Assembly (NCBI GenBank): GCA_020632415.1 | Contig: JACKFO010000002.1 | Span: forward strand, 578,732-642,731 | Direction of reading: 5' to 3' | DNA: 64,000 nt | Source of the DNA: Candidatus Nomurabacteria bacterium | Lineage (GTDB): Bacteria; Patescibacteriota; Patescibacteriia; UBA1558; GWA2-36-10 | Shown here: piece after piece, positions 13,397-32,210 of the stretch | Numbering within the stretch: the stretch's first letter is position 1 | Layout of the letters: each line of letters begins with the position of its first letter | Position numbers and translations under genes: made by a program | The notes under the pieces: model-generated | Told to the model about the DNA's origin: nothing | Databases searched by the model: none | The model's input: the letters and a program-made list of their open reading frames with translations, nothing else

Positions 13397-14995
13397 TTAC
13401 TTAAGCAGAGTCAACTTTTGTGCAAGGAAGCAGTTCTTGGATCGCAGTGCTACTATGTACACACCACTAGCTTCCTCAGCAAAATCAAACACCTGTCGAT
13501 GCTCGCCTGCTGAGAAAAATTGCGGTGATTGTGATTTCACTTGCCGTCCCAACAAGTCGTACACGCTGAATGTCAGCCACTGTGCCTCAGGCACCATGAA
13601 GCTGATATTGGTCTGCACGTTGAACGGATTGGGATAGCAATCCAAACTGAACTCTTGCGGCCTAGCGATCGGCTGCTCAACGGATACTTGATCCAAGAGC
13701 AAACCCCAAGCAGTAGTGACCCACTGATTGTTGAGATAATCACAAGTTGCTCCGCAATAAGTTCCAGAATTTGTAACAATCGCCTTAGTCTGAGAATAGG
13801 GTCTAGCTGCGTCATTGGCTGCCATGTAGCCCGGCAGAGAGAACTGATGACTCTCCACGAATGAAAAGCCGTCGAATTCAAACCACAGAGCTTTTTGAGT
13901 AGCCAAGCTCGACTGATACCACAGTAAGTGGTTGTCGAGCAGGTCAACAGCCATGACCAAATCGTCGATCACCAAAGAATCCAAGATCTGACCAGTTTCA
14001 GTCAGAGCAAAAAGCAAACCATGACTAGGCGTAGCACCGGAAGTAGTAGCGACCAACAAGACATCGTCCTGCCAAACCGGTACACCATACCAATGAACAC
14101 CATGATACAAAGTATCTGCAACTACTTGCTGACCATCATAGAGATCGGTCACTGTCAGCTGCAGATAATCATTCCAGTATGGATCCGAGCCCACGATACC
14201 GACGGAGTAAAGATTCCCTCCTCTAATGCTCAAACGCGAGCGGGCTTGAGGAAAATCATTTGCCGTCGTCCAGACAAACTCTCCATCGGCTGACAAGAAA
14301 GCTGTATGCTCCGAGTTCTGCAGAACAAAACCATCGGCATAAGCAATCATTGCCAGCTCTGAACTGTAGCTGTCCCCAAGATAAGTCACGGGATCATCCC
14401 GCAACAAAATGCCTGTGTTTAGATCAAGCACCTGTACGTAGTAGCTCGGTGCTTGCTGTCCACTGTGACCATCAGAAATTCCTTTGACGATCAGAAGTCG
14501 ATCGCCGTTGATCAGGGGCTGGAAACCAGCGCCCAAAGAAATTTCCAGACTGTCCAAAGGACCATCGCTCAGCGACCAATCCTCCACGAACTGCCCAGTC
14601 TGATAGTCAGGATGCAAACGATGATAGTGCATGGTGGTCGTGTTTACCTCAGTAAGAGTAAACTCGGTCTCCACCAGAACAAAACCATTGTTCTGATCAG
14701 TTACTACTTCGCCACCCGTTGCCGGATGATTGAGCAGCAACTGATCGCTGATCAGAATCGTACCTTGCGGACTGTGCACGCTGGCGTAAGCGTCACCGTA
14801 GTAAGGCGGCGCATATCCGGCATACCACAAATCCAAAATATTGTTGTCAGCCAAATTCTCAGCAAACAACGACGTTGCCGTCGGTGTCTGCGGATTGACT
14901 CGCTCCACCCAAAAGTAAGTGGAGTCGATGCCGTCTTCTTGAGCATAAACCGTGTTGCAGAACAACACGATCAAGCCCCAAAGCAGAGTCTTCAT
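13397..14995 (-). CDS. Secreted protein with a type IX secretion system (Por) C-terminal sorting domain; foreign GC-rich origin
   Basis: Signal peptide MKTLLWGLIVLFCNTVYA. The C-terminal ~80 aa (CYPNPFNVQTNISF…LTFSVYDLLGRQVK…ASGVYIVALRS…KLTLLK) match the T9SS CTD consensus. SD AAGAGGTGTGAG. GC ~53%. Confidence 0.75.
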   Translation of the reverse strand: MKTLLWGLIVLFCNTVYAQEDGIDSTYFWVERVNPQTPTATSLFAENLADNNILDLWYAGYAPPYYGDAYASVHSPQGTILISDQLLLNHPATGGEVVTDQNNGFVLVETEFTLTEVNTTTMHYHRLHPDYQTGQFVEDWSLSDGPLDSLEISLGAGFQPLINGDRLLIVKGISDGHSGQQAPSYYVQVLDLNTGILLRDDPVTYLGDSYSSELAMIAYADGFVLQNSEHTAFLSADGEFVWTTANDFPQARSRLSIRGGNLYSVGIVGSDPYWNDYLQLTVTDLYDGQQVVADTLYHGVHWYGVPVWQDDVLLVATTSGATPSHGLLFALTETGQILDSLVIDDLVMAVDLLDNHLLWYQSSLATQKALWFEFDGFSFVESHQFSLPGYMAANDAARPYSQTKAIVTNSGTYCGATCDYLNNQWVTTAWGLLLDQVSVEQPIARPQEFSLDCYPNPFNVQTNISFMVPEAQWLTFSVYDLLGRQVKSQSPQFFSAGEHRQVFDFAEEASGVYIVALRSKNCFLAQKLTLLK

Positions 14996-15178
14996 CTCAC
15001 ACCTCTTATTTTCATTGTTTTTCGTTGAAATCGATATGTAAACCAATTGGTTGATTAACCAAATGGTTATTTTGTAAAAGGACAGATCTAACTAGATACC
15101 ATAGTAAAAATAGCACATTTTGTCAATAAACAAAAAACGCCCTTCTCAAATCCGAGAAAGACGTCTCAAAAATCAATG

Positions 15179-16102
15179 TTACAACTTTTTACGAAAACTA
15201 ATAAAAATAAAGGCTGCAATAAAAACTAAGGCTAAGGCTAGGCCCGAAATTGCCAAAAAAGCATGTGGCCAATCAGCAAAAGGTAGAGAAATGTTCATAC
15301 CATAGATGCTAGAAATTAACATCGGGATAGTAAACAAGGCAGTGATATAAGTCAATAACTTCATGGTCTGATTTAACTGAATCGACATCACGGTAGTATA
15401 AGCATCTCGAACATTTTTAACTGTTTTCAGATTAGTAATCGCCAACTCCAAAACCTGCTGACCATCAACCAAAACATCATCGATCAAATCTTTGTCTTCT
15501 TGATAAAGATGAATATAATTATATTGCAGTAATTTCTTAATCGTATGAATCGTCGGCGTCAAAGAAGCAATAATGTTGTTCAAAATTTCTTCTGTCTCAA
15601 CTAAACTATAAACATCTGACTTATCAATGTCTTCAATTTGCGCTTTTTCTTTTTGAACTTTACGATTCAAAACAACGATGTGTTTTTGATAATAATGAAT
15701 CAAGCGCAAACAAAGGTTAATTAAAAAATTTGATTGTTGAGTAGTATAAAAATTTATTTTTTGATTAGCAAAGTCATCAATTAAAGTATTTTTTACTGGA
15801 CTAACGGTAGTTAATAATTTTTTATTTAAAATAATGGTAAAAGGATAAGTTTTATAAGTTCCTTTTTCTTCAACGATAGATCTCAAAATTACTACAATAT
15901 TTTCACCTTCAACTTCAATGCGAGGCAATTCAAAACGATCTAAACTATCCTGCAAAATGTCAATCGGTAAATTTAATTGCTTACTGATTTTTTCTATTTC
16001 TTTTTCTGTTGGCTCAACTACAGACAACCAAGAACGATCCGAAAACTCTGTTGCATTTTTTAATTTTTTTTGTTGAATTGTATTTTTGTAACTTTTAATC
16101 AT
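15179..16102 (-). CDS. corA: CorA-family Mg2+/Co2+ transporter
   Basis: C-terminal two-TM region with the YGMN signature (SSIYGMNISLPF). Confidence 0.8.
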   Translation of the reverse strand: MIKSYKNTIQQKKLKNATEFSDRSWLSVVEPTEKEIEKISKQLNLPIDILQDSLDRFELPRIEVEGENIVVILRSIVEEKGTYKTYPFTIILNKKLLTTVSPVKNTLIDDFANQKINFYTTQQSNFLINLCLRLIHYYQKHIVVLNRKVQKEKAQIEDIDKSDVYSLVETEEILNNIIASLTPTIHTIKKLLQYNYIHLYQEDKDLIDDVLVDGQQVLELAITNLKTVKNVRDAYTTVMSIQLNQTMKLLTYITALFTIPMLISSIYGMNISLPFADWPHAFLAISGLALALVFIAAFIFISFRKKL

Positions 16103-16114
16103 AACTCTAAAAAA

Positions 16115-16831
16115 TTAAAATAATAAATCAGCAACTCGACCAACTAAATAGCCAATCAAAGTTGCCAGTCCACCCAGAGCAACCATTTGCAAAGATGACT
16201 TGAGCCAATTAATTTTCGTAAATTTAGTAGCAAAAGCTCCGAGTAAGAATAAACCAATTAAAGTCAAAATTATTGCGGCATAAGTTGCCTGTGGAATTTC
16301 TAAAAATAAATACATTGAAATTGGAAAAGCACCACCAATGATATAAGAAAAAAACATCACTATTGCTCCCTGACCTAAACGATGCTCTTTTGCTGGATCA
16401 ATGTTTAATTCACGATAGGCCATTTCTTTTAACATTAGATCATGGTTTTTAGAGGCTACTTCTGCCATTTTTTGAGCCAAATTTTTTGGCCAGCCATCTT
16501 CAATATACATTTCTATTAATTCTTCTTTTTCAGCTTCTGGATAGTCTTTGACCTCTGTTCCTTCTTCGTATAATTTACGAGCTTCAACTTGTTTGACTGA
16601 TTGATTAGAAATGTAAGAACCGATTGCCATCGAGATCGACTCTACCGTCACAACAACTAAACCTGAAAGGATTACTATTTTTGCATCTCCAGTTCCAGCG
16701 GCAATTCCAGTTACCGCGCCCAAAGTGGAAACCATACCATCTTCCATGCCAAAAACAAGCTCTCGAATATTATCACTGAGCTTAGAATTTTGATGATGAA
16801 TAAAATCTTTACGATGAGGGATTGTTTCCAT
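16115..16831 (-). CDS. VIT1/CCC1-family iron/manganese transporter
   Basis: FGMEDGMVSTLGAVTGIAAG…SMAIGSYISNQS motifs typical of VIT-family (DUF125) proteins. Confidence 0.65.
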   Translation of the reverse strand: METIPHRKDFIHHQNSKLSDNIRELVFGMEDGMVSTLGAVTGIAAGTGDAKIVILSGLVVVTVESISMAIGSYISNQSVKQVEARKLYEEGTEVKDYPEAEKEELIEMYIEDGWPKNLAQKMAEVASKNHDLMLKEMAYRELNIDPAKEHRLGQGAIVMFFSYIIGGAFPISMYLFLEIPQATYAAIILTLIGLFLLGAFATKFTKINWLKSSLQMVALGGLATLIGYLVGRVADLLF

Positions 16832-16918
16832 ATTGATAAGTATAACAAAATTTAAACAAAGAAAAAAGCTCACTTCCCAAGGGCAAAAGTGAGCTCAAAC
16901 ACTTGTCTGTGCTCAGGC

Positions 16919-17152
16919 CTATTCTGTCTTGTTGCTCTGAGATCGATGAAGGCGCTCCTCCTCTTCGGTCATCAAGAACTTGTGAGTAGTAGGCTGACAG
17001 TCACACGCAAGATACAGGTTCATTGCGCCCTGAGAAGCCTCCAAATTCCCATAGCAATGTGGACATTGCATACCAACTCGACGAACGTGCCCTGGCAAAG
17101 GAATCGGAAAAGCTTTGGACATCAAACTCCTCTCCCCGATTTTTTCTACCAC
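16919..17152 (-). CDS. Small zinc-ribbon-like protein (CPHC…CDC), GC-rich orphan
   Basis: 77 aa carrying MQCPHCYGNLE…LACDCQ. Local GC ~50%. A GC-rich terminator hairpin (AGCTCACTT…AAGTGAGCT plus T6) sits at 16869-16897 on the minus strand. Which strand is coding is uncertain. Confidence 0.35.
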   Translation of the reverse strand: MVEKIGERSLMSKAFPIPLPGHVRRVGMQCPHCYGNLEASQGAMNLYLACDCQPTTHKFLMTEEEERLHRSQSNKTE

Positions 17153-17228
17153 AAGGAACTTTCTTTATTTCAATCTATCTTAGGTAAGCTATATTGTCAA
17201 AAAAAATAATTTTCTATTACTATTAATT

Positions 17229-18443
17229 TTAACCAAACATCAACCAAGCAGGCTTAAAAATTAACAATAAGCCAATTAATACCATCAAGATGCCACCAAG
17301 CAATCTAGAAAATCTACTATACTTAGTTGTAAAACCAGATGCCTGTAAGGTAAGCATTGCTAGAAAAAAAATAATCAAATCATCCAACATGAAAATAAAA
17401 ATATACAACAAAATATACATATAGTAATGCCAGGTGGGCAAATCATTCATGGTTAGCACTTGAGTATACACGGCTGGAATGCCAGCAGAACAAATCAGCT
17501 CAATCATATTAACTGCTGCAGCTAATATGATAATGCCTCCTAGGGCTAACCAGAAATTATTATTTTTTACTACGTTACGAAGTCTGGAAAAAGTTTCTTG
17601 TTTTTTCTGCATATCACCAACATTACAAACCGCATCTTTATTGGTAAAAAAATCTTTCAGACTATATATTCCACCACCCAAAGCTACAAGCGCAATTAAT
17701 AATCTTACCCAAAAAATAAGGCCAATAAATAATAAGACATTAAGCCAAGCAACTAAAAATAAATAATATACTAAAGCTGAAGTGACAATAAAAGCGCCAC
17801 CTAAAATCCACATCTTCTTCCGATCCTTCATGCCTAATAATAAGCCAATTAAAAATATCAAGGCCCACATTGCGCAAGGATTAAAACCATCCAAAGCTCC
17901 TAAAATAATCGTCAATAATGGCAAAGAAAAAGACTTAAGATTCACTGTGCCAAAAAATGGTATTTTAAAATTTTCCAAAGTAGCATCACTACTGACTTGT
18001 TCAATATCTAGAGCATCACGCGAATCTACGTTAGCCATAGCAAACATGATATCAGGACAGTAATTTTCTAAACAAAAAAGAGCTGCTTGCTCAATAGCGG
18101 CTCCGTGCGTTTGATCATCTCCATAGCCAGAAAAAGCTTGATTGCCAACAACGGTAAAAGGGACACCTGAAATGTCTGCGTCTAAAAATTGACCGAGGCT
18201 CCTAAAAATCTCTTGATTTTCTACATTTTTTGAAACCTCAAAATTTACCACTTCAATCGCTGAATATCTTTCTGCTAAATCAGCCAAAAAAAGCTCTTCT
18301 TTAGCACAATGTGGACAACCATCAGCATTAAAAAAATATATTTTTACCACAGAATCTTCCGCCTGAACTGACAAAATGTTAAATAACGGCAAAAATACAA
18401 TAGCCAAACCAAAAAATATTTTTTTCATCATATCCATCATCAT
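17229..18443 (-). CDS. Thioredoxin-like domain fused to a CcdA/DsbD-type thiol:disulfide transporter
   Basis: N-terminal periplasmic Trx fold with CPHC, followed by a polytopic region containing the DsbD-family motif (DGFNPCAMWALIFL). Confidence 0.7.
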   Translation of the reverse strand: MMMDMMKKIFFGLAIVFLPLFNILSVQAEDSVVKIYFFNADGCPHCAKEELFLADLAERYSAIEVVNFEVSKNVENQEIFRSLGQFLDADISGVPFTVVGNQAFSGYGDDQTHGAAIEQAALFCLENYCPDIMFAMANVDSRDALDIEQVSSDATLENFKIPFFGTVNLKSFSLPLLTIILGALDGFNPCAMWALIFLIGLLLGMKDRKKMWILGGAFIVTSALVYYLFLVAWLNVLLFIGLIFWVRLLIALVALGGGIYSLKDFFTNKDAVCNVGDMQKKQETFSRLRNVVKNNNFWLALGGIIILAAAVNMIELICSAGIPAVYTQVLTMNDLPTWHYYMYILLYIFIFMLDDLIIFFLAMLTLQASGFTTKYSRFSRLLGGILMVLIGLLLIFKPAWLMFG

Positions 18444-18473
18444 AACACATCTACAACAAAAAAATAAAGATGT

Positions 18474-18788
18474 CTACTGATCGATTCTAATCGCCTTTCC
18501 TTCCACTAAAGCTTGAGAGATTTTCTGATAAGCCCCACTTAAGACCCTTTGAAAAGTGCTTTGTGAGGTATTCATTTTTTGCGCACAAACTACTTGATCA
18601 TAATTTTCGATATTCTTTAAACGCAAAGCTTCCACCTCTTCTAAAGACAAAAAAATCTCTTCTAAATCTCTCAAGGGAATGCCTTGTGGTTTAAAATAAC
18701 GAACCAAAGGCTTAAATCGAACACGCCTCATTAAACGCGGTCGACCTAAGCCCCAATTACCATTTTGATTTCCTCTATTTGGCATCAT
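18474..18788 (-). CDS. DUF134 (UPF0251) predicted DNA-binding protein
   Basis: YFKPQGIPLRDLEEIFLSLEEVEALRLKNIENYDQ…MNTSQSTFQRVL is the DUF134 signature. Confidence 0.7.
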   Translation of the reverse strand: MMPNRGNQNGNWGLGRPRLMRRVRFKPLVRYFKPQGIPLRDLEEIFLSLEEVEALRLKNIENYDQVVCAQKMNTSQSTFQRVLSGAYQKISQALVEGKAIRIDQ

Positions 18789-18951
18789 TAATTCTTTGGT
18801 TCTTTCCTCTCAATCCCAAGCCACGTCCTCTGCCTCGACCTAAACCGCGGCCAGATTCTAATGTTTGATCTTGATTTTTATTGCATGAGCCTAAGCCCAA
18901 GCCTGTTTTAGGGCCCTTACCTTGAGGTCCTGTACCATCTCTATTTGGCAT
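18775..18951 (-). CDS. Small Gly/Arg-rich protein (58 aa), DUF5320-like partner of DUF134; not in the ORF track because it is under 60 aa
   Basis: Hand translation gives MPNRDGTGPQGKGPKTGLGLGSCNKNQDQTLESGRGLGRGRGRGLGIERKNQRINDAK. The MPxxDGTGPxGxGPxTG N-terminus is typical of the small proteins that pair with DUF134. It overlaps the DUF134 start by 14 nt. Confidence 0.55.
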   Translation of the reverse strand: MPNRDGTGPQGKGPKTGLGLGSCNKNQDQTLESGRGLGRGRGRGLGLRGKNQRINDAK

Positions 18952-19057
18952 AATATTATTGATTAATAATTAAGCTATTATGAATATATACCCAAAAAGA
19001 TAAAATGTCAAATAAAAAATAAAAGCCCACCCTGCACGCAAGGTGAGCTAGAACGAA

Positions 19058-20095
19058 TCACAGTTTTGCTAAGACCAAATACAAACCCTCAGCAATCACC
19101 GAAGAGACATCAACAGTGGTAATGAGTCCACCTGTCTTGTATTTATAGGGACGATGTCTAGTGTTACCAATAAAGATACGACTAAACTGATTGACACTAG
19201 GATCTAAAAAGGTACGACGCCAACCGGAGATGAGCACTGGATGAGTAGCGCAAAACAACACTTCTTTGACGCCAACTTCTTGCAAAAGATAACGAGCTCT
19301 CTTTTGAGAAGTTCCGCCAGAAGCCACTTCGTCATCCAGAGAAATTACTAAAGCGTCACGTAAATCAACATCACTTAAGAATTCACAGTCTGGATATTGC
19401 TGACGCAAGTTATTCAAAATATCCTCACTGCTCCTAGTTTCAGTCTGGCCAGTCACCAAACGATTTTTCAAACCCAGGCCAACTGGCGCTTGTAATAGTT
19501 TAGCCACTGACATGGCTCTCAACAATGAACCAAGATCAGGAGAGTCAACGACCACCAATCTACCTTGCTGACGATTAATCGTCACTATGGGTAACAATGT
19601 GTCAACAAAGATTGGAGCAGCCGTCACATTGACCACTTCGATTTGATGAGCCTGGAAATTATCAATCACTCGCTGAGAGTGAATATCACAAAAGATGACT
19701 CTACTGACACCTGCGGCTGCTAATTGATTCGCCAAATAACGACTACGCTCAATTTCCTGCGGCTTGTCCGGATGATCTTGCCGACGATAAGCACAAAAAG
19801 GTAAAACACAAGTCACTGACTGAGCGCCATACTGATATTTGGCTGCCCAAACCAAAGTTAAAAGTTCATCGATCAATTCGAGAGTGGTCATGCTCTGGAA
19901 AATGATCACATGTTTTCCATTCAACTTCGGATATTGAGGAATTCTTAAGTCAGATTCACCATCTGGAAAAGCGTCAAAATCCAGATGAAGAAATTGTAAA
20001 TCCCAAGCGGTTAATTCATGCAAACGAGCGAGAATAGCGTTATTCAGTGGATAATTGCCATTACCACTAATGAAGGCAAAATTATCGGCGTTCAT
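19058..20095 (-). CDS. prs: Ribose-phosphate pyrophosphokinase (PRPP synthetase) family protein, GC-richer than the host
   Basis: N-terminal domain matches (HVIIFQS…VLPFCAYRRQDHP; DIHSQRVIDNF). C-terminal PRTase motif VISLDDEVASGGT. A GC-rich hairpin terminator (GCCCACCCTGCACGCAAGGTGAGC plus T-run) lies at 19026-19049 on the minus strand. Confidence 0.65.
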   Translation of the reverse strand: MNADNFAFISGNGNYPLNNAILARLHELTAWDLQFLHLDFDAFPDGESDLRIPQYPKLNGKHVIIFQSMTTLELIDELLTLVWAAKYQYGAQSVTCVLPFCAYRRQDHPDKPQEIERSRYLANQLAAAGVSRVIFCDIHSQRVIDNFQAHQIEVVNVTAAPIFVDTLLPIVTINRQQGRLVVVDSPDLGSLLRAMSVAKLLQAPVGLGLKNRLVTGQTETRSSEDILNNLRQQYPDCEFLSDVDLRDALVISLDDEVASGGTSQKRARYLLQEVGVKEVLFCATHPVLISGWRRTFLDPSVNQFSRIFIGNTRHRPYKYKTGGLITTVDVSSVIAEGLYLVLAKL

Positions 20096-20252
20096 CTTCG
20101 TGTCTCCTTGGCTGTGTGTGATTCAACTATCAAAGATCTTCTTATTGACTTCAATCTATCTTAATCAACTAAAATTGTCAAAACAAAAAACCAAACATAA
20201 AATACGTAGTTTAAAAATCTACGTATTTCAGTAAAAAATTAATTAAGAAATC

Positions 20253-20711
20253 CTATCGCGCAAGATCTCCTAAATAAAAATTGTCTAAATTTTCATGAGC
20301 TCGATCTGAATGTGGCGTGCCGTTAGATGGCCTTTCTTCAAATAACTGAGTAGCGTTAATTCCACAACCCATCAAGATCGCTTCTCCACCAGGATGATTA
20401 GAAATGGCTGGTGTAATATCAAAAACCTGATCATGAATAATTGTCCAACAATCATCAACTGTATTGTGCTTGGCCACTTCCGATTCAGCAATCCAATTAG
20501 AGCCTTCTGCTTCCAACTTGGCATCTTCTATTGCTTGACGTTCCAAAGCATCGTCATCTTCCTCAAGAGCCTGACCTAAAGTTTCGCCAGTTTGTTGAGA
20601 GCCATCTACTTGTTGGTCAAAATTTTCCTGCCCAGGCTCTAAAGCTTTTTGACCACAAGCAGTTAAAAAAAATAAAGCCACAAAAAGCATTGCAAATATT
20701 TTTTTACTCAT
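20253..20711 (-). CDS. Lipoprotein with a cytochrome b5-like heme-binding domain
   Basis: Lipobox (FFLTAC). Cyt-b5 core HNTVDDCWTIIHDQVFDITPAISNHPGG…ATQLF. A terminator hairpin AATACGTAG…CTACGTATT lies at 20198-20226. Confidence 0.65.
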   Translation of the reverse strand: MSKKIFAMLFVALFFLTACGQKALEPGQENFDQQVDGSQQTGETLGQALEEDDDALERQAIEDAKLEAEGSNWIAESEVAKHNTVDDCWTIIHDQVFDITPAISNHPGGEAILMGCGINATQLFEERPSNGTPHSDRAHENLDNFYLGDLAR

Positions 20712-20727
20712 ATAATAAATTAATTAA

Positions 20728-21078
20728 TTATTTTTTAATTTTTAAATCTCTAATATCTCTTCTGATAGTTTCAATGTGCTTCAAAATTTCTTCTGCTAGT
20801 TTAGCAGATCTTAAATCCGCCTGCAAGTCCATCTCGTCTCTTAAATTGTCCCGCATCGATTGTCTATTTTGCGCCATCAATAATAAAATCATCAAAACAA
20901 TTGCCTCTAAAGAAACAATCAAGGTAAGCATATTGACGTCTAACTGATAAGCCAACCAAGTCGTAAACCAAATCATATGAACCACCAAAAAAAACCAGGA
21001 GCCAATCCACGCATTCATAGAGTCTAAAAATTGAAATCCTTCTAATAAGCTAAAATTTATTTTTTTATTTTTTTTCAT
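20728..21078 (-). CDS. Small membrane protein, DUF1003-like (two TM plus coiled-coil tail)
   Basis: 116 aa with two hydrophobic helices followed by a charged coiled coil. The family assignment is tentative. Confidence 0.35.
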   Translation of the reverse strand: MKKNKKINFSLLEGFQFLDSMNAWIGSWFFLVVHMIWFTTWLAYQLDVNMLTLIVSLEAIVLMILLLMAQNRQSMRDNLRDEMDLQADLRSAKLAEEILKHIETIRRDIRDLKIKK

Positions 21079-21188
21079 ATCCTCTTATATTTATCTATAT
21101 CATAGCATATAATAAAATTTTCATAAATTATTTGCCCAAGCAGAGTAAAAAATGATAAAATGAAAGCAGTAAAAATTAAAAATAAAAA

Positions 21189-21878
21189 ATGTTGAAAAAA
21201 ATTACCCAAAAAACAGCCTATGCTCGTTCTCGTCCAAAAAGCCAAGGACCATACACTCAAATTTATTTAATTCGTCACTGTAAACCAGATTACACTCAGC
21301 AAAAAGAACTTGGTGATGCTCATATGCCACTTGATCAGACTGGCTTGAAACAAAGAAAATTATTAAACAAAAAATTATTTTCTATCCACATCGATAAAGT
21401 TTATACCAGTGAGTTTTTACGTGCCCAACAAACTGCTGAAATCTATTTGAAAAAAACTAAAAAAAATCCTATTGTAGACAAAAGATTTAATGAAGTTGAT
21501 TGGAGTGAATGGTATAAAATGAAGTACTTTAATATGTCTGAGAAAACTCGCGTCAAACGAGTAAAGGCCTATAAAGAAATGGACAAAAATCTCAGCAAAC
21601 TTCAAACTCGTTTCCGTCGTATCTTAGCTGACATTTATCATCACAACAAAGGAAAAGACGTGGCAATCTTTTGTCATGGCAATGTCATTCGTTCTATTCT
21701 TACCAGTATTTTAAATACCGATGTTGTTGGATTTTTATCAATCGAAGTTTATCAATCCTCTATTTCCAAAATCGTGATCGACAAACACGGCTATGTCAAA
21801 ATAAATTACATGAACAATATTGGACATTTACCGCATAAACCGCACGAAGACTTATTCAAATTTGCCTTGGAGCAATAA
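21189..21878 (+). CDS. Histidine phosphatase (phosphoglycerate-mutase-like) family protein
   Basis: IYLIRHCKP (RHG-type motif) and a second catalytic His in AIFCHGNVIRS. Confidence 0.6.
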   Translation: MLKKITQKTAYARSRPKSQGPYTQIYLIRHCKPDYTQQKELGDAHMPLDQTGLKQRKLLNKKLFSIHIDKVYTSEFLRAQQTAEIYLKKTKKNPIVDKRFNEVDWSEWYKMKYFNMSEKTRVKRVKAYKEMDKNLSKLQTRFRRILADIYHHNKGKDVAIFCHGNVIRSILTSILNTDVVGFLSIEVYQSSISKIVIDKHGYVKINYMNNIGHLPHKPHEDLFKFALEQ

Positions 21879-21928
21879 AAACTAATCAAAAAAACTCTGC
21901 TGATCAGCAGAGTTTTTTATTATAATAA

Positions 21929-24091
21929 TTATAATTTGATATTTTTTATTCGCAAACTATTTGATACCACAGAAACACTACTTAAGCTCATCGCCAACGC
22001 GGCAATCATCGGACTCAAATAACCCAAAGCCGCTAACGGAATAGCAACTACATTATAAATAAAAGCAAAAAATAAATTTTGTTTAATAATTTTAAAAGTT
22101 TTTTTGGATAATTTAATAGCACTCAAAACTGCGCGTGGATCGTTTTGCATCAAAACAATATTACCACTTTCCATCGCTACATCAGTACCCGCCCCCAAAG
22201 CAATGCCCAAATCTGCTTGAACTAAAGCCGGAGCATCGTTAATCCCATCGCCAACAAAAGCAACCACTTTACCAGCACTCTGGAGTTTCTGAATTTCTGC
22301 TACTTTTTGATCTGGCAAAACTTCGGCAATTACATTTTTTACTCCTAATTGCTGTGCGATATTTTCGGCACTGAGCTGATGATCACCAGTCAACATATAA
22401 ACTTCTAATTCTTTTGACAAAGCCTCAACAGCTGCTTTGGAGCTGGCCCTTAATTGATCAGCCACTGCTACCAAGCCTAATATTTCGCGATCTTGAATAA
22501 AATACATTACTGTCTTGCCACTAGAAGCGTATTGAATAAATTTATCTTGAAAATTTTGCTTCAAATTTAAATTTAATTCTTTGATTAATTCTAAATTACC
22601 CAAATGTATTTCACTCTTCTCCACTATGCCTCGTAAACCTTTGCCACGAATAGCCTGCACTTCTGTAGCTGCTAATAAACTTAAGTGTTTTTCTTTGCTG
22701 TAGCTGACAAAAGCTGTTGCTAAAGCATGCTCACTATTTTTTTCTACAGAACAAGCCAAAATCATCAGACGTTCTTTGGATAAACTTTCAGAAAAAGTCT
22801 CGATATCCGTCACTTGCAAACGGCCCTCAGTCAAAGTGCCGGTTTTATCAAAAACTACGGCTTGCACTTTGTGCGCTATTTCCAAACTCTGTGAATCTTT
22901 GATCAAAATACCGTTGGCCGCTCCCTTGCCACTGCCCACCATCACCGCTGTTGGCGTCGCCAAACCTAAAGCACATGGACAAGCAATGACCAAAACCGCT
23001 ACGGCATTAATCAAGCTCGCTACAAAACTGACGTCCAGCACAAAAAACCACAGCACAAAAGTAAGCGCCGCAATCACCAATACTACTGGCACAAAAATGC
23101 CAGAAACCAAATCGGCAAGTTTTTGAATCGGCGCTTTTGTATTTTGAGCATTTTCTACTAGTTTGATAATTTGAGCCAAAACTGTATCATTGCCAATTTT
23201 ATTCACCTTGACTTTGATCACGCCAAAGCTATTAATCGTCGCTCCATAAACCAAATCGCCAACTTTTTTATCAACCGGCACACTCTCTCCAGTGAGCATT
23301 GATTCGTCGATCGAAGTTTCTCCTTCAATAATTTCTCCATCCGAGGGAATTTTTTCTCCTGCCTTAACTAATAAAACATCATCTAATTTAATTTCGGCAA
23401 TATCTTTTTTAAGCTCTTCTCCGGCCACTAAAATCGTAGCTTGCTTGACGCTCAATGAAAATAACTTCTTGATCGCTGTCGAAGCTCGACCCTTGCTTTT
23501 TTCTTCCAGATATTTGCCCAACAAAATCAAAGTAATAATAATCGCTGCTGTTTCAAAATATAAATGCTGACCTGCAAACATCGCGTAAAGACTATAAAAA
23601 TAAGCAGCCAAAGTTCCCAAAGAAATCAAAGTGTCCATATTGGCCTTGAATTTTTTGAGTTGCAAAAACATTCCTCGATGGAACTGCCAACCCAGCACAA
23701 AAACAACTATTAGTGCCAAAAATTGCAGCAACCAAATATCCAAACTAATACTCAAAAAACTAGCTGACAAGTTCAGCTGATAAAACATAGAGGCCAACAA
23801 AGGTAAGCTCAAAACCAAGGCCCAAAGAAATTTATGCCAAGCCTGAGTTGTTGCTTGATCTTCTGATTTTTGATCTAAATTTTCAATCACTTTATAATCT
23901 CCCGCCCCACGCACCGCCTGATGAATATCGTCTAAAGTTGTTTTTTGATCATCAAAAACCACCGCTGCTTTACCAGTCGCATAATTGACATGTGATTTTT
24001 CCACTCCTGACAATTTACCAATACTCTTTTCTAAGCTCACCGCGCAGCTAGCGCAATGCATGCCAGCAATTTGAATATTTATTTCTTTCAT
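21929..24091 (-). CDS. copA: Copper-translocating P1B-type ATPase
   Basis: N-terminal HMA ([10 protein letters not shown]), CPC motif ([11 protein letters not shown]), [17 protein letters not shown]. Confidence 0.95.
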
Positions 24092-24099
24092 ATCTTTAT

Positions 24100-25437
24100 T
24101 TATTCAATAATAAACTGCCCTCTAACCATGCCCATCCAACAAGAAAAGTTTATTTTTCCTGTTTTTTTTGGCGTAAACTCAATAATATTATCTCCTTTAG
24201 TCAGAGATTTTTGAATGCCTAAATCTGGCACGATAATTTGATTGGTACAGCCCGAAGCTTGCGTGCCATCAATAATCCATTTGACTGGTACGTCTTTTTT
24301 TAGATAAAAAACACTAGGATTATAACCGCTGTAATCAATCCCCATTTTGATCACTTGCTGATCATCTTGGTTTAAAACAGCAGTCCCTTTTTCTTGAAAC
24401 AAGCTACCAAAATAAATGCCCCTCACTGCTAAACCAGACGATAAAGTATAAAGAGCGAAAACTAAAAGCAACAAACCAATCGCTTTTTCAAAAACTATAC
24501 TTTTCAAATGCTGAAAACGAGAAGTTGTCGAACCGACTAAAAATAAAACTGGCGCCGTACCTAAAGCAAATAAAAACAAAGTAAAGGCACCAAGCCAAAA
24601 ATTACCAGAGCTAATCGCGAATAACTGCATACTTTGCGTAAATCCACAGGGCAAGAAAAAAGTAAAAGCTCCCAAAAGCAATGGTGCTGCTTTGTGTTCT
24701 GAGTTTTTTAATTTTTGCCAAATTTTAAAACTGCTTTTTGGCATACTTAAACCAAATTTTGTTAGACTTGGTAATAAGCCTAAAATATTTAAAGCCAGCC
24801 ATAGCAAAACTAAAGCTACTAAAATTGTCAGCCAAGAAAAAAAGGAAGTCGACAAACTAATCTTACTTCCCAACCAACCCAAAGCTCCTCCCAAAATAAA
24901 AAATGAACTTAAACGTCCCACGTGAAATAACAAATGTGGCTCGACATTACGTTGCCAAGCAGTGCCGCGACTTTGATATTTAGCGGCAAAAGAAATCACC
25001 ACTCCACCAACTACTGCCAAACAACTAGACAAAGAAGCGACAATGCCAATCATAAAAGCGGCGCCAAAATTGATATCACTAGGATTGAAATCTAGCCAAC
25101 TCAACACTCCAATCCACTGAAAATATAAATAAATCAAGTACAAAGCAAGAACAATCAAAACTGAATAAAACCACTGTTCTAAAGTAGCTGACTTTTTCTT
25201 GATAGCTTGCAGCTGACTTTGCTCAAGAGCGCAACCGTAACCCATTTTTTCAATTTTTTGTTTTAATTCCGGCCAAGGCAGATCACCAAGATATTCAATT
25301 TCTGCACTTTGAGTTTTAACCGAAGCTTTGACTCGGACGATACCCGAAATGCTCTGCGCCTCTTCTTTGATAATATTTTCACAAGAAACACAAGTCAAGC
25401 CTGCTAAATATATTTTTTTATTTTTGACTGCGGGCAT
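24100..25437 (-). CDS. Membrane protein with an N-terminal HMA domain, a DsbD_2-like polytopic core with intramembrane Cys, and a C-terminal cupredoxin-like domain (putative copper handling)
   Basis: HMA box [10 protein letters not shown]. Eight TM helices with SSCLAV and LPCGFTQ motifs. C-terminal beta-domain ending [12 protein letters not shown] resembles pseudoazurin Cys/Met ligands. Sits between csoR and copA with 2-9 nt gaps. Confidence 0.6.
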
Positions 25438-25438
25438 A

Positions 25439-25720
25439 TTATTTTAAAGATAATTTATTTAATTGCAAAATTTCCTCAATCATCGTCTTTTGCTTAGAGG
25501 CGTTATTGGAATTCATCACCGCCTTAAAACAACTGTTTAGATGATCGGCTAATAGTTCTTGATTAGCTGATTTTAATAAGCCAATCACTGCCAGATTTTG
25601 TTGCATGATATCCACGCAATAGCGACCATCCTCTTTCATCTCAATAATCTTGGCTAATAAACTATGGGCTTTTTTCAAAGCACTTAAGCTTTTCTTTGAA
25701 TTTTTTTCTAACATTACCAT
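25439..25720 (-). CDS. csoR: CsoR/RcnR-family metal-sensing transcriptional repressor
   Basis: GRYCVDIMQQ … ADHLNSC gives the C-H-C ligand pattern of CsoR. First gene of the copper operon. Confidence 0.7.
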   Translation of the reverse strand: MVMLEKNSKKSLSALKKAHSLLAKIIEMKEDGRYCVDIMQQNLAVIGLLKSANQELLADHLNSCFKAVMNSNNASKQKTMIEEILQLNKLSLK

Positions 25721-25833
25721 AAAAATAAATTAATATTTATATACCTACCCCCCAGGTATGGATGTATCATAACACTAAGTAAAATTTTAAGCAAATAAAA
25801 AACCGGCTAAGTAAGTGCCGATTTTAATTTTGT

Positions 25834-26169
25834 TTATTTTTTAATTTTTTTTATTTTCCCTAAAGCAATTTCTTTGTGCAGAGAATAGCCGAGTAAAATT
25901 CTGACCAAAACTATTCCTCCCAACTGCAAAATCTCATTGATATCCCCGGCCACAGTCACCAAAAGAATATCCGCAGCAATCACAAACTCCAAAGCCAAAA
26001 TAATATTTTTAGCTAAATCTGCCCTGATTTCGTTTTGTTCAAATTTATCCTGAAACAAATGCCACAATGCTCTCAAGACAGCCATGATGACCAAGAAAAC
26101 TCCAACGTACTCAATCATCAAGCCAAAAGAATGAATTACGGCATTAATTATCAATTGTAAATCCCCCAT
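25834..26169 (-). CDS. Small integral membrane protein (DUF1622-like)
   Basis: 111 aa, three to four TM helices. Family assignment tentative. Confidence 0.4.
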   Translation of the reverse strand: MGDLQLIINAVIHSFGLMIEYVGVFLVIMAVLRALWHLFQDKFEQNEIRADLAKNIILALEFVIAADILLVTVAGDINEILQLGGIVLVRILLGYSLHKEIALGKIKKIKK

Positions 26170-26193
26170 ATTTTTATATTTATTTTAATAACT

Positions 26194-26691
26194 CTAATTT
26201 AACTGCCAAATTGCAAAGTTTAAAATTGCCGCAAAACTCACCCACAGAATATAAGGCAGTAGTAAATACGCTGCCGTTTTTTTTACTTGATAAAAATAAT
26301 AAATATTAGTAAGTATCGCTAGCCACAAAATAATAATCTCTACAAAAGCCGCGCCTGGATTGTGTAAGCCAAAAAATAAAACCGACCAAAAAACATTTAG
26401 CACCAGTTGACCAATAAAAATTGCCCAGGCAAGCTGTACTTTTTTCTTTTTAAAATCTTCCTGCCAAATCAAATACAAAGCAAAGCCCATCAATAAAAAC
26501 AACAAGGTCCAAACCGGACCAAAAATCCAATTTGGTGGATTAAAACTTGGTTTTATAATTCCTCGATACCAGGCATTAATTTCTGAAGTAGTAAAGACCG
26601 AACCAAGTAACCCTGCGCCTTGGCAAATAATAATGCTTAATAATAATTTAGGCCATGATTTTATTTTTATTTTCATATTTTTAAATCGCAA
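26194..26691 (-). CDS. tspO: TspO/MBR (tryptophan-rich sensory protein) family
   Basis: WYRGIIKPSFNPPNWIFGPVWTLLFLLMGFALY is the TspO signature. Five TM helices. Confidence 0.75.
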   Translation of the reverse strand: MRFKNMKIKIKSWPKLLLSIIICQGAGLLGSVFTTSEINAWYRGIIKPSFNPPNWIFGPVWTLLFLLMGFALYLIWQEDFKKKKVQLAWAIFIGQLVLNVFWSVLFFGLHNPGAAFVEIIILWLAILTNIYYFYQVKKTAAYLLLPYILWVSFAAILNFAIWQLN

Positions 26692-26992
26692 TCATTAAAA
26701 AAGTCAAAACAATCAGCAAAAGCAAAAACAAAAAAGTATAGCCCAGTAAAATCAAAGCTGATTTAACTTCTTTGTTGAACAACAAATAAATCGGATAGCC
26801 AAAAATTAAAGATCCACAAACTGAAGCTGACAAAACCAACAAAGACAAAATTACGACTATCCCCAAAACATTTGGCCCAATATTCCACTTTTCAACTGTC
26901 TGCATAAAAGTACCAACCAATAAGACATAAACACTGGTAAAAAATGCTTGGCCAAAAGCCACTAGTGGCAAAGGTAAATGTTTAAATTTCAT
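26681..26992 (-). CDS. Small hypothetical membrane protein (three TM)
   Basis: ORF only; hydrophobic. Confidence 0.35.
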   Translation of the reverse strand: MKFKHLPLPLVAFGQAFFTSVYVLLVGTFMQTVEKWNIGPNVLGIVVILSLLVLSASVCGSLIFGYPIYLLFNKEVKSALILLGYTFLFLLLLIVLTFLMIAI

Positions 26993-27063
26993 AATTTTTA
27001 ATTAAATGATTATATTTACATTATAACAAAATATCGCCTGAGTGGCGATATTTAAAAAATATT

Positions 27064-27837
27064 TTAGTGACTATGTGGCAAAATCGAAACCAGAAGATAA
27101 ATAACTAAAACGCCAAGTAGCAACCACAGGGATTGTTGAATTATTTTTTTCGGATTTTTTTCATGATGTAACTCTGGCATCAAATCAGCAGTTGCTAAAT
27201 AAATAAAATTACCAGCCGCAAAAGCTCCCATTAGAGGAATAAGATTGGAAAAGCTTTGACCAAAAAAATAAAAAATAATTGCCCCAAAAACAGCAATGCT
27301 AGCGACCACCAAATTATAAAACAAGGCTTTGGTCTTACTTAAGCCCGCATACAGCAGAACCCCAAAATCAGAAATCTCTTGCGGAATTTCATGCAAAATC
27401 ACCGCCAAAGTCACGATCATCCCCGCGTGTATATCAAGCATAAAAGAAGCCGCGATCAAAAAACCATCTACTAAATTATGAATCGCGTCGCCAATCAGAT
27501 TAATATAAACCAAATGCTTTTTATTTTCTGAATGTGGATGCTCGTGTTCTTGATGTCGATCACACTGACAGTGATGCCAGTGCAAAATTCTTTCAAACAA
27601 AAAGAAGAAAACAATACTAGCCAAAACTACCGCAAAAATTAAATGTGGCTCAAAACTTCCTTCTTCAATCGCTTCTGGTAAAAGATCTAAAAAAACTACG
27701 CTTAACAAGCTACCAGCTGATAAACTGATTAAGGCCCTTAAAAAATTTGCTTTAATTTCTCGATTAAAGATCAATAATATTCCGATTAAAGAAATTAAGC
27801 TCACTAAAATTGTCGCTAAAATAATGTATCCTAACAT
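27064..27837 (-). CDS. zupT: ZIP-family zinc transporter
   Basis: His-rich loop HEHEHPH; HNLVDGFLIAASF and HEIPQEISDFGVLL ZIP signatures. Confidence 0.8.
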   Translation of the reverse strand: MLGYIILATILVSLISLIGILLIFNREIKANFLRALISLSAGSLLSVVFLDLLPEAIEEGSFEPHLIFAVVLASIVFFFLFERILHWHHCQCDRHQEHEHPHSENKKHLVYINLIGDAIHNLVDGFLIAASFMLDIHAGMIVTLAVILHEIPQEISDFGVLLYAGLSKTKALFYNLVVASIAVFGAIIFYFFGQSFSNLIPLMGAFAAGNFIYLATADLMPELHHEKNPKKIIQQSLWLLLGVLVIYLLVSILPHSH

Positions 27838-27839
27838 AT

Positions 27840-28214
27840 TTATTTATTACATTTATTACATAAACCTGATAAAAATAATTGATGTTTAACTTGACTAAAA
27901 TTTTTGATTTTTTTAAAAAAATGATCACAAGGCAAACATTGGGTAAAACCACATTTTTGACAAGTGATATGATGATGTTGTTTATCGGCTAAATAATATA
28001 AAGCTTCTTTTTCTGATAACTCTCTAAAAACTAACCCTGCTTTTTCTAATATTTCTAGATTACGATAAACTGTCACTCTGTCTAAATGAGCAGACAAAGC
28101 AGAATAAATATCTCCAGCTGATACTAAATTTTGATTTTTTTCTAAAAAATCTAAAATTAGCTGACGAGCTTGAGTTTTACTGAGGCCTGCTTGTTTTAAT
28201 AAATCTTCTTTCAT
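27840..28214 (-). CDS. zur: Fur-family regulator, probably zinc uptake regulator
   Basis: Winged-helix N-terminus plus C-terminal CxxC…CxxC (CQKCGF…CNKCNK). Immediately upstream of zupT with a 2-nt gap. Confidence 0.7.
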   Translation of the reverse strand: MKEDLLKQAGLSKTQARQLILDFLEKNQNLVSAGDIYSALSAHLDRVTVYRNLEILEKAGLVFRELSEKEALYYLADKQHHHITCQKCGFTQCLPCDHFFKKIKNFSQVKHQLFLSGLCNKCNK

Positions 28215-28285
28215 GAAAAACATCCTAGCATAAACAAAAAATAATTGCAAATCAGTTGCAATTATTTAAAGGGTTAAAAAATTAA

Positions 28286-29404
28286 TTAGGCTTTCTTAGC
28301 TGACAAAAACCAGCTTGCTAGCCAATTGCTAATTGGAATCGCCAAAATAATGCCAATGCTTCCTAATAAAGTTCTGATTATTTCCGTAGCCACCATTTCA
28401 TTATTTATTGCTTGGCTCAAATTCAAACCAATCACGTCGCTCTTAGCAAAAAGAATCAACAAAGGCAAGGCTGCGCCCGCATAAGCAAAAAATAAAGTAT
28501 TAATCATTGAAGTAATGTGATCTACTCCCACTTTTGCACTCATTTTATAAACTTCTTTTTTGCTTAAACTAGGATTAGCCTGCTTGATTTGCTCAACAGT
28601 TGAAACTTGGCTAATAATCACATCATCCAAAACCCCTAAGGTTCCGATCAAAATTCCGGCTAAAAGTAAGCCTTGTAGATTTAAAGATCCTTGGGCTAAA
28701 TCAAAAAGGAAGACCGTCTCTTCACCAGCATAGCCACTCAATTGAGCTAAAGCTGTAAACATCGCTGATAAAAAAGCCGTGAATAACAAAGAAATTATCA
28801 AAGATAAATTTGCTAAATGAGCCTTAATATTAAAACCTTGAGTCAAATAAATAGCAAAAAATAAAATAAAAATACCCCCCAACACGCTGACCAAAACTGG
28901 ATTAGTGCCAGCTAAAATTTGTGGAATAATAAACTTCAAAATAACCAAAAAACTAGCTATTAAGGCCAATAGAGAACGAAATCCTTTCCAGCGACCAATA
29001 ACTAAAACACTGAAAATAAAAATGAAACTCAATAAAATAATAGGATTAGTTCGATCATAATCCGAAACAAAAAAATAAGAAGAACCATCATCATTGATGC
29101 TACTTATCACCATCACTCTATCGCCCAAAGCATATTGTCGACTAGATAAAATCTGAAAATCACTAATGCCTTCAAAAACTATTTCTTGATTTTTAAAGTT
29201 TCCAGACAAACCTTTTAATCTTAAATTTTGTTGAATAAAATTTAAGCCAGATTCATCGATGATTTCCTTTTCAGCTAAAATTTCAATAACCTTAGCTTTA
29301 AAAATTTCTTCTTGCTGAGTACTTTGAGCGGAAAGACCAAGAGGTAAAAATAGTAAAAATAGTAAAAATATTTTTTTCATAAAATTATTATATCCTAAAA
29401 ACAC
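28286..29404 (-). CDS. YibE/F-like polytopic membrane protein with an N-terminal extracytoplasmic domain
   Basis: Signal peptide, ~100 aa soluble domain, then ~8 TM. Family call tentative. Confidence 0.45.
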   Translation of the reverse strand: MFLGYNNFMKKIFLLFLLFLPLGLSAQSTQQEEIFKAKVIEILAEKEIIDESGLNFIQQNLRLKGLSGNFKNQEIVFEGISDFQILSSRQYALGDRVMVISSINDDGSSYFFVSDYDRTNPIILLSFIFIFSVLVIGRWKGFRSLLALIASFLVILKFIIPQILAGTNPVLVSVLGGIFILFFAIYLTQGFNIKAHLANLSLIISLLFTAFLSAMFTALAQLSGYAGEETVFLFDLAQGSLNLQGLLLAGILIGTLGVLDDVIISQVSTVEQIKQANPSLSKKEVYKMSAKVGVDHITSMINTLFFAYAGAALPLLILFAKSDVIGLNLSQAINNEMVATEIIRTLLGSIGIILAIPISNWLASWFLSAKKA

Positions 29405-31940: not shown

Positions 31941-32015
31941 GCCCCGATAGTTCAACGGATAGAACAGTAGCCTTCTAAGCTATAGATCTAGGTTCGATTC
32001 CTAGTCGGGGTACCA
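31941..32015 (+). tRNA. tRNA-Arg (anticodon TCT), CCA encoded
   Basis: Hand-folded cloverleaf: acceptor GCCCCGA/TCGGGGT, anticodon loop CTTCTAA, T-arm GGTTCGATTCC. Confidence 0.8.
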
Positions 32016-32043
32016 TCACATATTACATATTTATTTTAAACAA

Positions 32044-32119
32044 GCCCTTATAGCTCAGTTGGTAGAGCAGTTGCCTCTTAAGCAAACGGTCCCAGGTTCG
32101 AGTCCTGGTGGGGGCACCA
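32044..32119 (+). tRNA. tRNA-Lys (anticodon CTT), CCA encoded
   Basis: Acceptor GCCCTTA/TGGGGGC with two G-U pairs, D-arm TAGCTCAGTTGGTAGAGC, anticodon loop CTCTTAA, T-arm GGTTCGAGTCC. Confidence 0.8.
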
Positions 32120-32134
32120 CTAATTTATAAACAT

Positions 32135-32210
32135 GGTGGCTATGGTGTAACGGTTAACACAGCGGTTTGTGGTACCGCTAATGAGGGTTCGATTCCCTCT
32201 AGCCACCCCA
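32135..32210 (+). tRNA. tRNA-His (anticodon GTG) with encoded G-1 and CCA
   Basis: Extra 5' G pairs with discriminator C73. Anticodon loop TTGTGGT. T-arm GGTTCGATTCC. Confidence 0.8.

Follow-up and report, generated by a model that had tools for sequence, protein, structure and literature searches.

The stretch of DNA analysed here, called the window throughout, comprises 64,000 nucleotides (nt) of a Candidatus Nomurabacteria genome (Patescibacteriota; assembly GCA_020632415.1, contig JACKFO010000002.1, positions 578,732 to 642,731), and it holds a copper operon whose middle gene encodes a membrane protein of 445 amino acids (aa) built of three domains. A model that saw the letters alone (the sequence-only reading) had placed three genes here, csoR, the middle gene and copA, and we confirmed the three open reading frames (ORFs), all on the minus strand, together with their coordinates. 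The close spacing it described also stands, with gaps of 1 nt between csoR and the middle gene and 8 nt between the middle gene and copA in place of the 2-9 nt it gave. The features of the operon are the following, with TM standing for transmembrane.

25789..25794, minus strand: -35-like hexamer TTGCTT of the operon promoter, with a 17-nt spacer to TATGAT (sequence reading, resemblance to the consensus only)
25766..25771, minus strand: -10-like hexamer TATGAT (sequence reading, resemblance to the consensus only)
25741..25759, minus strand: putative CsoR operator ATACCTGGGGGGTAGGTAT, inverted 6-bp arms ATACCT/AGGTAT flanking a G-tract
25439..25720, minus strand: csoR, copper-sensing repressor, 93 aa
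24100..25437, minus strand: middle gene, 445 aa, with an HMA domain, an extra helix (TM0), a 6-TM DsbD_2 core and a CupA-like domain (Pfam, phmmer, AlphaFold2 (AF2) model, Foldseek, charge bias)
21929..24091, minus strand: copA, P1B-1 Cu(I)-exporting ATPase, 720 aa, with a single N-terminal HMA domain
21889..21918, minus strand: intrinsic-terminator-like hairpin with a 13-bp stem and a T run, beginning 11 nt beyond the copA stop codon

The product of csoR matches PF02583 (Trns_repr_metal) with 57.3 bits against a cut-off of 22.8 (E 2e-15), and its residues C35, H60 and C64 align with the Cu(I) ligands C36, H61 and C65 of Mycobacterium tuberculosis CsoR (phmmer against 2HH7, 8e-9). CopA matches the Pfam families E1-E2_ATPase, Hydrolase and HMA as well as NCBIfam TIGR01511 (copper P-type ATPase; 595 bits, cut-off 397), its translation contains ACPCALG (CPC), DKTGT, IYN (YN) and MSLSS (MxxSS), and its N-terminus is an HMA domain by Pfam, not one of the cupredoxin type. 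The putative operator lies 6 nt past the -10 hexamer and 20 nt ahead of the csoR ATG; it occurs once in the window at three or fewer mismatches, with a chance expectation of 0. At least six related loci have similar sites of the form TACC-G-tract-GGTA ahead of their csoR, and CsoR operators have been described as pseudopalindromes with a G-tract (PMC3902906). Taken together, csoR, the 445-aa gene and copA form a well-delimited copper operon, bracketed by a promoter and CsoR operator at one end and a terminator at the other. The CsoR triad, the operator and the CopA motifs thereby agree with the copper operon that had been proposed from the letters.

We found that all three domains expected in the middle protein exceed their Pfam cut-offs. 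The HMA domain covers residues 10-67 (PF00403, 5e-9, 36.9 bits against 24.8), DsbD_2 residues 126-330 (PF13386, 4e-32, 112 bits against 24.9, profile positions 1-199 of 199) and Cupredoxin_1 residues 353-444 (3.5e-8, 33.8 bits against 27), and the AlphaFold model of the protein has a mean pLDDT (predicted local distance difference test) of 81. The parts of the protein map to the DNA as follows.

25222..25416, minus strand: CopZ-like HMA domain, residues 8-72, CxxC formed by C16 and C19 in the loop GLTCVSC (a GxxCxxC motif), predicted cytoplasmic (Pfam; no signal peptide; K/R-rich segment before TM0)
25111..25182, minus strand: TM0, extra helix, residues 86-109 (hydropathy, AF2 helix 86-109, charge bias)
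24424..25068, minus strand: DsbD_2/CcdA-like 6-TM core, residues 124-338 (Pfam, AF2, hhalign)
24103..24375, minus strand: CupA-type cupredoxin domain, residues 355-445, ligands C397, C433, M435 and M437, predicted extracytoplasmic (phmmer, Foldseek, charge bias)

Public annotation gives this protein another identity. An identical protein on record in a Candidatus Nomurabacteria (Patescibacteria) genome is named 'sulfite exporter TauE/SafE family protein' by the Prokaryotic Genome Annotation Pipeline (PGAP), and identical or related proteins carry TauE/SafE-type names from PGAP and the Joint Genome Institute (JGI). These names are all that speaks for an exporter of sulfite or organosulfonate anions of the TauE/SafE (TSUP) kind, which we consider extremely improbable. 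A Pfam scan of the middle protein down to E<=1 returned no TauE match (PF01925) where DsbD_2 matches at full length, and we rejected the annotation on this evidence. A 6-TM core with two kinked, Cys-bearing helices, flanking domains of copper-binding families and the copper operon itself all speak against it as well. The match to TauE/SafE exporters that the sequence-only reading had named as one outcome refuting its view did not materialize.

The C-terminal domain is, by sequence and predicted fold, a clear homologue of CupA of Streptococcus pneumoniae. It matches CupA (4F2E/2MRY) with a phmmer E-value of 1e-14 at 32% identity, the family profile does so at 9e-19, and the same profile matches the cupredoxin-type domain of pneumococcal CopA at 2e-13. 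Superposition of its AF2 model on 4F2E gave a Foldseek TM-score of 0.88 and a root-mean-square deviation of 1.7 Å, so the cupredoxin fold postulated for this domain is borne out. Residues C74, C111, M113 and M115 of CupA, which are ligands of its binuclear S1/S2 site (PMC7558416), align with C397, C433, M435 and M437 of the middle protein; the CupA numbering is that of the PDB alignment and the reviews. As had been noted from the letters, the core carries the motifs SSCLAV and LPCGF, the C-terminal motif is present and the C-terminal domain has no His. It had also been held that the system differs from CopZ and CusF; this is so, but it does not differ from every known type of chaperone, the C-terminal domain being a CupA homologue with C...CxMxM ligands.

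Within the core, TM1 is kinked at C139 (SLSSC) and TM4 at C264 (LPCGF), where the AF2 model breaks the helices at residues 135-138 and 261-265. The two Cys were placed on the TM1 and TM4 Cys of one Streptomyces CcdA by hhalign in a weak match (E 0.014), and the match of the core to DsbD_TM (PF02683; 1e-5, 25.2 bits) falls just under the cut-off of 27.1. Its membership therefore appears to be at the level of the DsbD superfamily and DsbD_2, not of CcdA proper. Searching all PDB sequences with the family profile, down to E<=10, brought up relatives of HMA and CupA alone, with no match to the core. Across 37 homologues (49-76% identity) C16, C19, C139, C264, C397, C433, M435 and M437 are invariant, and in approximately 200 family sequences the motifs xS(T/S)C(L/M), FLPCGFTQ(S/A)M and F(S/T)CxMGM are nearly constant, which argues that these features are not due to chance. 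The CupA-type ligand set (Cys...Cys-x-Met-x-Met) was found in 79 of 80 loci.

We found that this architecture is very common in Patescibacteria, and the middle gene is unusual, as the sequence-only reading had called it, only by comparison with textbook copper operons. A word-indexed protein search gave 3194 matches at E<=1e-5, the best 120 of which are nearly all approximately 445 aa long with the same Pfam domains, while an exhaustive search of 1.84 billion cluster representatives (50% identity) gave 1021 clusters at E<=1e-30, with nearly all of the best 150 full-length. Scanning one genome per GTDB species revealed at least 583 loci, distributed over Parcubacteria, Microgenomates, WWE3, Peribacteria, Gracilibacteria and Saccharibacteria, along with a few metagenome-assembled genomes (MAGs) otherwise labelled. 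As a separate observation, three close homologues lie on contigs of MAGs labelled Nanoarchaeia and Methanosarcinales, which may reflect real spread across domains or an error of binning or labelling.

Gene order was counted over the best 80 loci, with neighbouring ORFs called mechanically. Of the 69 loci having enough flank, 61 have a same-strand copA gene no more than 2.5 kb downstream, and csoR lies upstream of the three-domain gene in 22 of 79. Among 149 other neighbours (same strand, within 1.5 kb, csoR and copA excluded) the two leading families are HMA (18) and DSBA/Thioredoxin_4 (17), and DsbB/VKOR is not among the recurrent families of this census. In loci of the Peribacteria type, two genes for extracytoplasmic DsbA-like proteins stand between the three-domain gene and csoR-copA, one product being TM-anchored with CPFC and the other a lipoprotein with CEAC (positions 7378-8784 of locus L019, and likewise in six further loci). 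One relative of 720 aa from the search of representatives (P0163) joins HMA, DsbD_2 and cupredoxin domains to ScsC_N and a DSBA-like domain with the active site CSYC. Other family variants have two HMA domains, a Gly/Cys-rich tail (CGGxCGxxxCGCGG) or a second cupredoxin-like domain with GC...CAMGVPRG. In nine homologues of approximately 600 aa a Gly/Cys-rich linker (e.g., SCGGGGGSCGCG) follows the CupA-like domain, and their second cupredoxin-like domain has the motif GC...C-A-M-G-V-P-R-G without a second Met. Three or more Cys lie beyond the last CxMxM motif in 17 of the 80 loci.

Outside the candidate phyla radiation (CPR), Acetoanaerobium has the three-domain gene followed by copA, and Deinococcus, Streptomyces, Tsukamurella and Chlorohelix have a two-domain gene, DsbD_2 plus CupA-like domain, with the same Cys and Met motifs. 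A small HMA gene lies directly 3' of the two-domain gene in all four, overlapping it in Streptomyces. The association of HMA and core is thus conserved either as a fusion (CPR, Clostridia) or as adjacent genes. In a WWE3 locus (L063, RAAC2 genome), a gene running divergently from the three-domain gene (3572-5800, minus strand) encodes a P1B ATPase with a His-rich N-terminus and the TM motif CPD instead of CPC/CPH. A small CopZ-like protein is encoded separately in this locus, and its CopA carries two HMA domains.

The tight linkage to copA raises the question whether the middle protein is a two-faced, tethered chaperone, with its HMA domain serving as a tethered CopZ that feeds CopA, its outer domain taking Cu(I) at the CopA exit (compare CusF and CueP), and the 6-TM core a passive anchor across which nothing passes. 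In addition to the synteny of 61 in 69 loci, this idea would account for the window having no separate copZ, and CupA of S. pneumoniae functions only when anchored in the membrane (PMC7558416). We consider it unlikely, however: the two membrane Cys and their flanking motifs are invariant in approximately 200 sequences, which would not be expected if the core only anchored the protein; a separate CopZ-like gene is present in many loci (the 18 HMA neighbours of the census, and the WWE3 locus); and two-domain relatives occur with no adjacent ATPase. For the same reason of separate CopZ-like genes in many loci, we rejected as a full explanation that the gene simply substitutes for a missing CopZ.

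Two of the two-domain relatives adjoin mercury genes. On a Tsukamurella plasmid (L084) the two-domain gene and its HMA partner lie beside merA and a multicopper oxidase gene, and on a Deinococcus plasmid (L082) beside merB and a MerR-family gene, so the family may serve soft metals besides copper. An importer similar to MerT and MerP, in which Hg(II), Ag(I) or Cu(I) is bound by the outer domain and handed inward to the HMA domain to be dealt with in the cytoplasm, would fit these neighbours, and a thiol relay working passively runs downhill when it imports. Our data nevertheless make such an importer quite improbable here, since the partners in this and most related loci are a CsoR with a Cu(I) triad and a Cu(I)-exporting ATPase, the window has no mer genes, and importing copper would be harmful under copper stress. 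A mercury function for the window itself was rejected based on the CsoR triad, the Cu-type CopA and the missing mer genes.

The orientation of the protein in the membrane bears on every reading of its function. Hydropathy, the AF2 model and charge analysis agree on seven TM helices, TM0 plus a 6-TM core, and not on the 8-TM core that the sequence-only reading had described; eight helices would make its own arrangement of HMA inside and cupredoxin outside impossible, while seven are consistent with it. Over 37 homologues the mean number of Lys plus Arg in the predicted inner segments (before TM0 and in loops 1-2, 3-4 and 5-6) is 3.8, 3.5, 4.9 and 3.0, compared with 0.3, 0.1, 0 and 1.1 in the alternate, outer segments. 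This positive-inside bias predicts an HMA domain in the cytoplasm, a CupA-like domain outside and a core that is N-out/C-out, in agreement with the placement of both terminal domains proposed earlier. N-out/C-out is also the orientation of CcdA and DsbD-beta. TM0 is predicted to bridge the HMA domain on the cytoplasmic side and the core, whose N-terminus faces outward, and the two-domain relatives, which have no HMA domain, also have no TM0 and begin straight at TM1. The C-terminal DsbA/ScsC-like fusion in the 720-aa relative is an independent argument that this end is extracytoplasmic. A stand-alone CupA-like protein of a Listeria copY-cupA-copA plasmid operon shows the opposite charge pattern, with no positive charge ahead of its single helix, which fits the cytoplasmic orientation assumed for CupA. 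These data suggest that the CupA fold is used on both faces of the membrane. Among the cases examined, all CupA-like domains with a predicted outside location are joined to a DsbD_2 core, and the cytoplasm-facing CupA, e.g., that of the Listeria plasmid, is not.

The data show the gene order, the domains, the conserved ligands, the fold, the predicted topology, the operator and the synteny with copA and csoR; from these we infer copper binding, the cargo passed through the membrane, the source of electrons and any contact between the protein and CopA. We hypothesized that the middle protein is a fused, minimal Scs-like module, a conduit for reductant partnered with CopA, and we give this reading a probability of roughly 40%, placing it first among those considered. 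At high cytoplasmic Cu(I), CsoR would leave its operator at 25741-25759 through its C35/H60/C64 triad, and csoR, the 445-aa gene and copA would be co-transcribed. CopA would export Cu(I) at the cost of ATP, and the 445-aa protein would place three thiol sites in series: the cytoplasmic CxxC of the HMA domain, the mid-membrane pair C139/C264, and an outer binuclear Cu(I) site (C397, C433, M435, M437). The outer CupA-like domain would capture Cu(I) at the cell surface, while the CcdA-like Cys pair would carry reducing equivalents outward from the cytoplasm so that the outer ligand Cys stay reduced and copper-competent despite copper-driven oxidation of thiols; in some lineages the pair may also supply co-encoded or fused DsbA/ScsC-like proteins with reductant. 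Inside, the HMA domain would bind Cu(I) and either serve CopA in the manner of a tethered CopZ or act as a gate that depends on copper.

We favour the reductant conduit because the core belongs to the DsbD superfamily with CcdA-aligned Cys, and because DsbA/ScsC-like proteins recur as a fusion and as neighbours. The lack of DsbB/VKOR among the recurrent neighbour families, and the joining of outside CupA-like domains to a DsbD_2 core in the cases examined, also count for it. By our own reasoning, outward electron flow would be downhill, and passive export of Cu(I) under external copper stress would not. In the copper-induced Scs system, ScsB (a DsbD-family protein) and ScsC bind Cu(I) and protect the envelope, and they work together with CueP, a periplasmic Cys-based chaperone able to take Cu(I) from CopA (PMC10907172). 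The Cys of CupA reduce Cu(II) in vitro (PMC5646241; PMC7558416) and can therefore become oxidised.

Several points weigh against this conduit, chief among them its silence on a dedicated HMA partner, which in every case is either part of the same polypeptide as the core (CPR and Clostridia) or the product of the gene that directly follows (all four two-domain relatives). DsbD-type conduits normally draw on general thioredoxin and require no dedicated partner, and the HMA domain is a metal carrier that, to our knowledge, does not serve as an electron donor. The Deinococcus and Chlorohelix pairs have no P-type ATPase in the stretch shown and may work alone. Association with DsbA-like proteins is found mainly in a single lineage, Peribacteria, and in a few more besides, and the 23 window ORFs scanned (approximately 5.7-34.4 kb) gave no Pfam DsbA or thioredoxin match. 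DsbD_2 is a Pfam family separate from that of the proven electron carriers, and the sub-cut-off DsbD_TM score and weak hhalign match to CcdA given above count here too. Some members have extra soft-ligand residues near the TM Cys (STCM, SLHCLTMCGG in Acetoanaerobium, CGFTQSM), and these look like metal ligation. In addition, many Patescibacteria inhabit anoxic groundwater, where external thiols need less protection.

Several of the same points would fit a Cu(I) thiolate relay, the idea put forward in the sequence-only reading, in which Cu(I) passes by ligand exchange from the HMA CxxC to C139/C264 and on to the outer CupA-like site, or in reverse. A DsbD-type, alternating-access Cys pair would here be repurposed for a soft metal, as MerP, MerT and NmerA handle Hg(II). 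The HMA-core link across phyla, fused or as an adjacent, partly overlapping gene, is what a relay would call for, as are three soft-ligand pairs in series, all invariant, and the additional Met, His and Cys by the TM Cys of some members. HMA plus DsbD_2 proteins were previously predicted in the CsoR regulon of gut Clostridiales (PMC4938975), and ScsB and ScsC themselves bind and transfer Cu(I) (PMC10907172). The order core-HMA-merA in Tsukamurella recalls merT-merP-merA, and the outside Cys/Gly-rich tails or second cupredoxin domain of some homologues resemble metal sinks. However, we reasoned that the gradient of free Cu(I) points inward under copper stress. A relay working passively would thus bring copper in, and in a detoxification operon built on CsoR and CopA that would be senseless unless proton movement or thiol oxidation were coupled to it. 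Nor does a relay predict that DsbA/ScsC-like proteins recur as a fusion and as neighbours; carriage of metal on the Cys pair is not known for any member of the DsbD superfamily, and the family-profile search of the PDB found no solved or characterised relative of the core. We regard the relay as possible but rather doubtful, with the conduit for disulfide reductant at least as likely given the ScsC/DsbA-like fusion, the DsbA-like neighbours and the CcdA-homologous Cys.

In its boldest form, this reading would make the DsbD_2 core a copper transporter of a new type whose alternating-access Cys pair shuttles Cu(I), not electrons, between the cytoplasmic HMA domain and an extracytoplasmic CupA-type site, a proposal we hold only tentatively. 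Protonation or oxidation of the thiolates might then drive release outside, after which they might be re-reduced from the cytoplasmic side. Were this true, copper would have a thiol-relay route that depends on neither P-type ATPases nor resistance-nodulation-division (RND) pumps; it would be widespread in Patescibacteria and extend to Clostridia, Actinomycetota, Deinococcota and Chloroflexota.

Our literature search found no experimental study of the middle protein, nothing on the HMA-DsbD_2-CupA architecture and nothing on copper handling in Patescibacteria; the only notice was computational (Hobbs et al. 2016; PMC4938975). The three-domain protein is among the most conserved companions of the Patescibacteria copper pump, yet it is publicly mislabelled as a sulfite exporter, and a better annotation of more than 1000 protein clusters would be the practical outcome of this analysis. 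The CupA fold, a streptococcal peculiarity according to reviews, is widespread and apparently also lies on the outer face of the membrane. With its fixed series of HMA domain, membrane Cys pair and CupA-like site, the family offers a compact system on one polypeptide for asking whether electrons, Cu(I) or both pass through DsbD-type Cys pairs. ScsB and ScsC pose the same open question, the relation of their copper transfer to their redox activity being itself unsettled (PMC10907172).

The operon lies within a run of genes for metal ions and membrane functions (window 15182-29404).

15182-16102: CorA
16118-16873: VIT1
20253-20711: lipoprotein with a cytochrome b5 domain
25834-26169: DUF1622
26194-26691: TspO
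27064-27837: ZIP transporter, with a Fur-family regulator at 27840-28250
28286-29404: YibE/F

Within this run, a 404-aa ORF (17232-18443, minus strand) has no Pfam match and contains a CPHC motif, a DsbA-type active-site sequence. Beyond the run, a secreted ORF of 1162 aa (9887-13375, minus strand) has approximately 54% G+C compared with approximately 35% for the genome and no Pfam match; the ORF next to it (13397-15046) ends in a Por_Secre_tail domain (type IX secretion sorting), and a tyrosine integrase lies at 8645-9439. The region 8645-15046 looks like integrated foreign DNA or a chimeric assembly. A 665-aa ORF (32361-34358, minus strand) likewise lacks a Pfam match; the stretch in which it lies has 47% G+C, and three tRNA genes stand beside it at 31941-32207.

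Compared with known systems, the closest likeness of the C-terminal domain is to pneumococcal CupA (4F2E/2MRY) and to the cupredoxin-type N-terminal domain of pneumococcal CopA (4F2F), with all four binuclear-site ligands kept, and the gene occupies the same slot between a copper repressor and copA. Here, however, the domain follows seven TM helices and is predicted to face outward, whereas CupA has one helix, at its N-terminus, and is assumed to be oriented towards the cytoplasm. The CopA N-terminus is an ordinary HMA domain in place of the pneumococcal cupredoxin type, and the repressor is CsoR where S. pneumoniae has CopY. CupA is described in reviews as limited to a few streptococci (PMC7558416, PMC5646241), in contrast to the wide spread of this family in Patescibacteria.

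With CcdA, DsbD and ScsB the core shares a superfamily (DsbD_2) and a 6-TM layout with one Cys each in kinked TM1 and TM4, and its predicted N-out/C-out topology corresponds to that of CcdA. The family is likewise tied, as are ScsBC(D) and CueP, to a copper context and to DsbA/ScsC-like proteins, with one direct fusion. It differs in belonging to another Pfam family, with DsbD_TM below cut-off. DsbD and ScsB have eight TM helices plus an immunoglobulin (Ig)-like alpha and a thioredoxin-like gamma domain, whereas the middle protein has seven, and neither domain was found in it by Pfam or in the AF2 model. Its predicted cytoplasmic HMA domain is not known from any characterised DsbD-family protein, and its outer client is fused and is a cupredoxin. 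The COG2836 'heavy metal transport/detoxification' proteins (HMA + DsbD_2 +/- DUF2318) that Hobbs et al. (2016) predicted in the CsoR regulon of gut Clostridiales (PMC4938975) share the HMA plus DsbD_2 pair and the predicted CsoR control beside copA. Their C-terminal domain is DUF2318 and not a CupA-like cupredoxin, and that computational study considered them possible chaperones and proposed no topology or mechanism.

MerP, MerT and NmerA resemble the middle protein in having paired thiols on both faces and in the membrane, with an HMA domain at one end of the chain. Their membrane parts have no sequence homology to the core, the HMA protein MerP lies outside whereas the HMA domain here is predicted inside, and the Mer relay imports metal for a reductase. 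The CopZ-like HMA domain recalls the pairing of CopZ with CopA, and an outer Cys/Met site of the Cu(I) type beside a Cu(I) pump recalls CusF and CueP, but here both chaperone-like domains are on one polypeptide, joined by a Cys-bearing membrane core. All of the parts come from known families, and what is new to study is their combination, the predicted outward placement of the CupA-type site and the mechanism.

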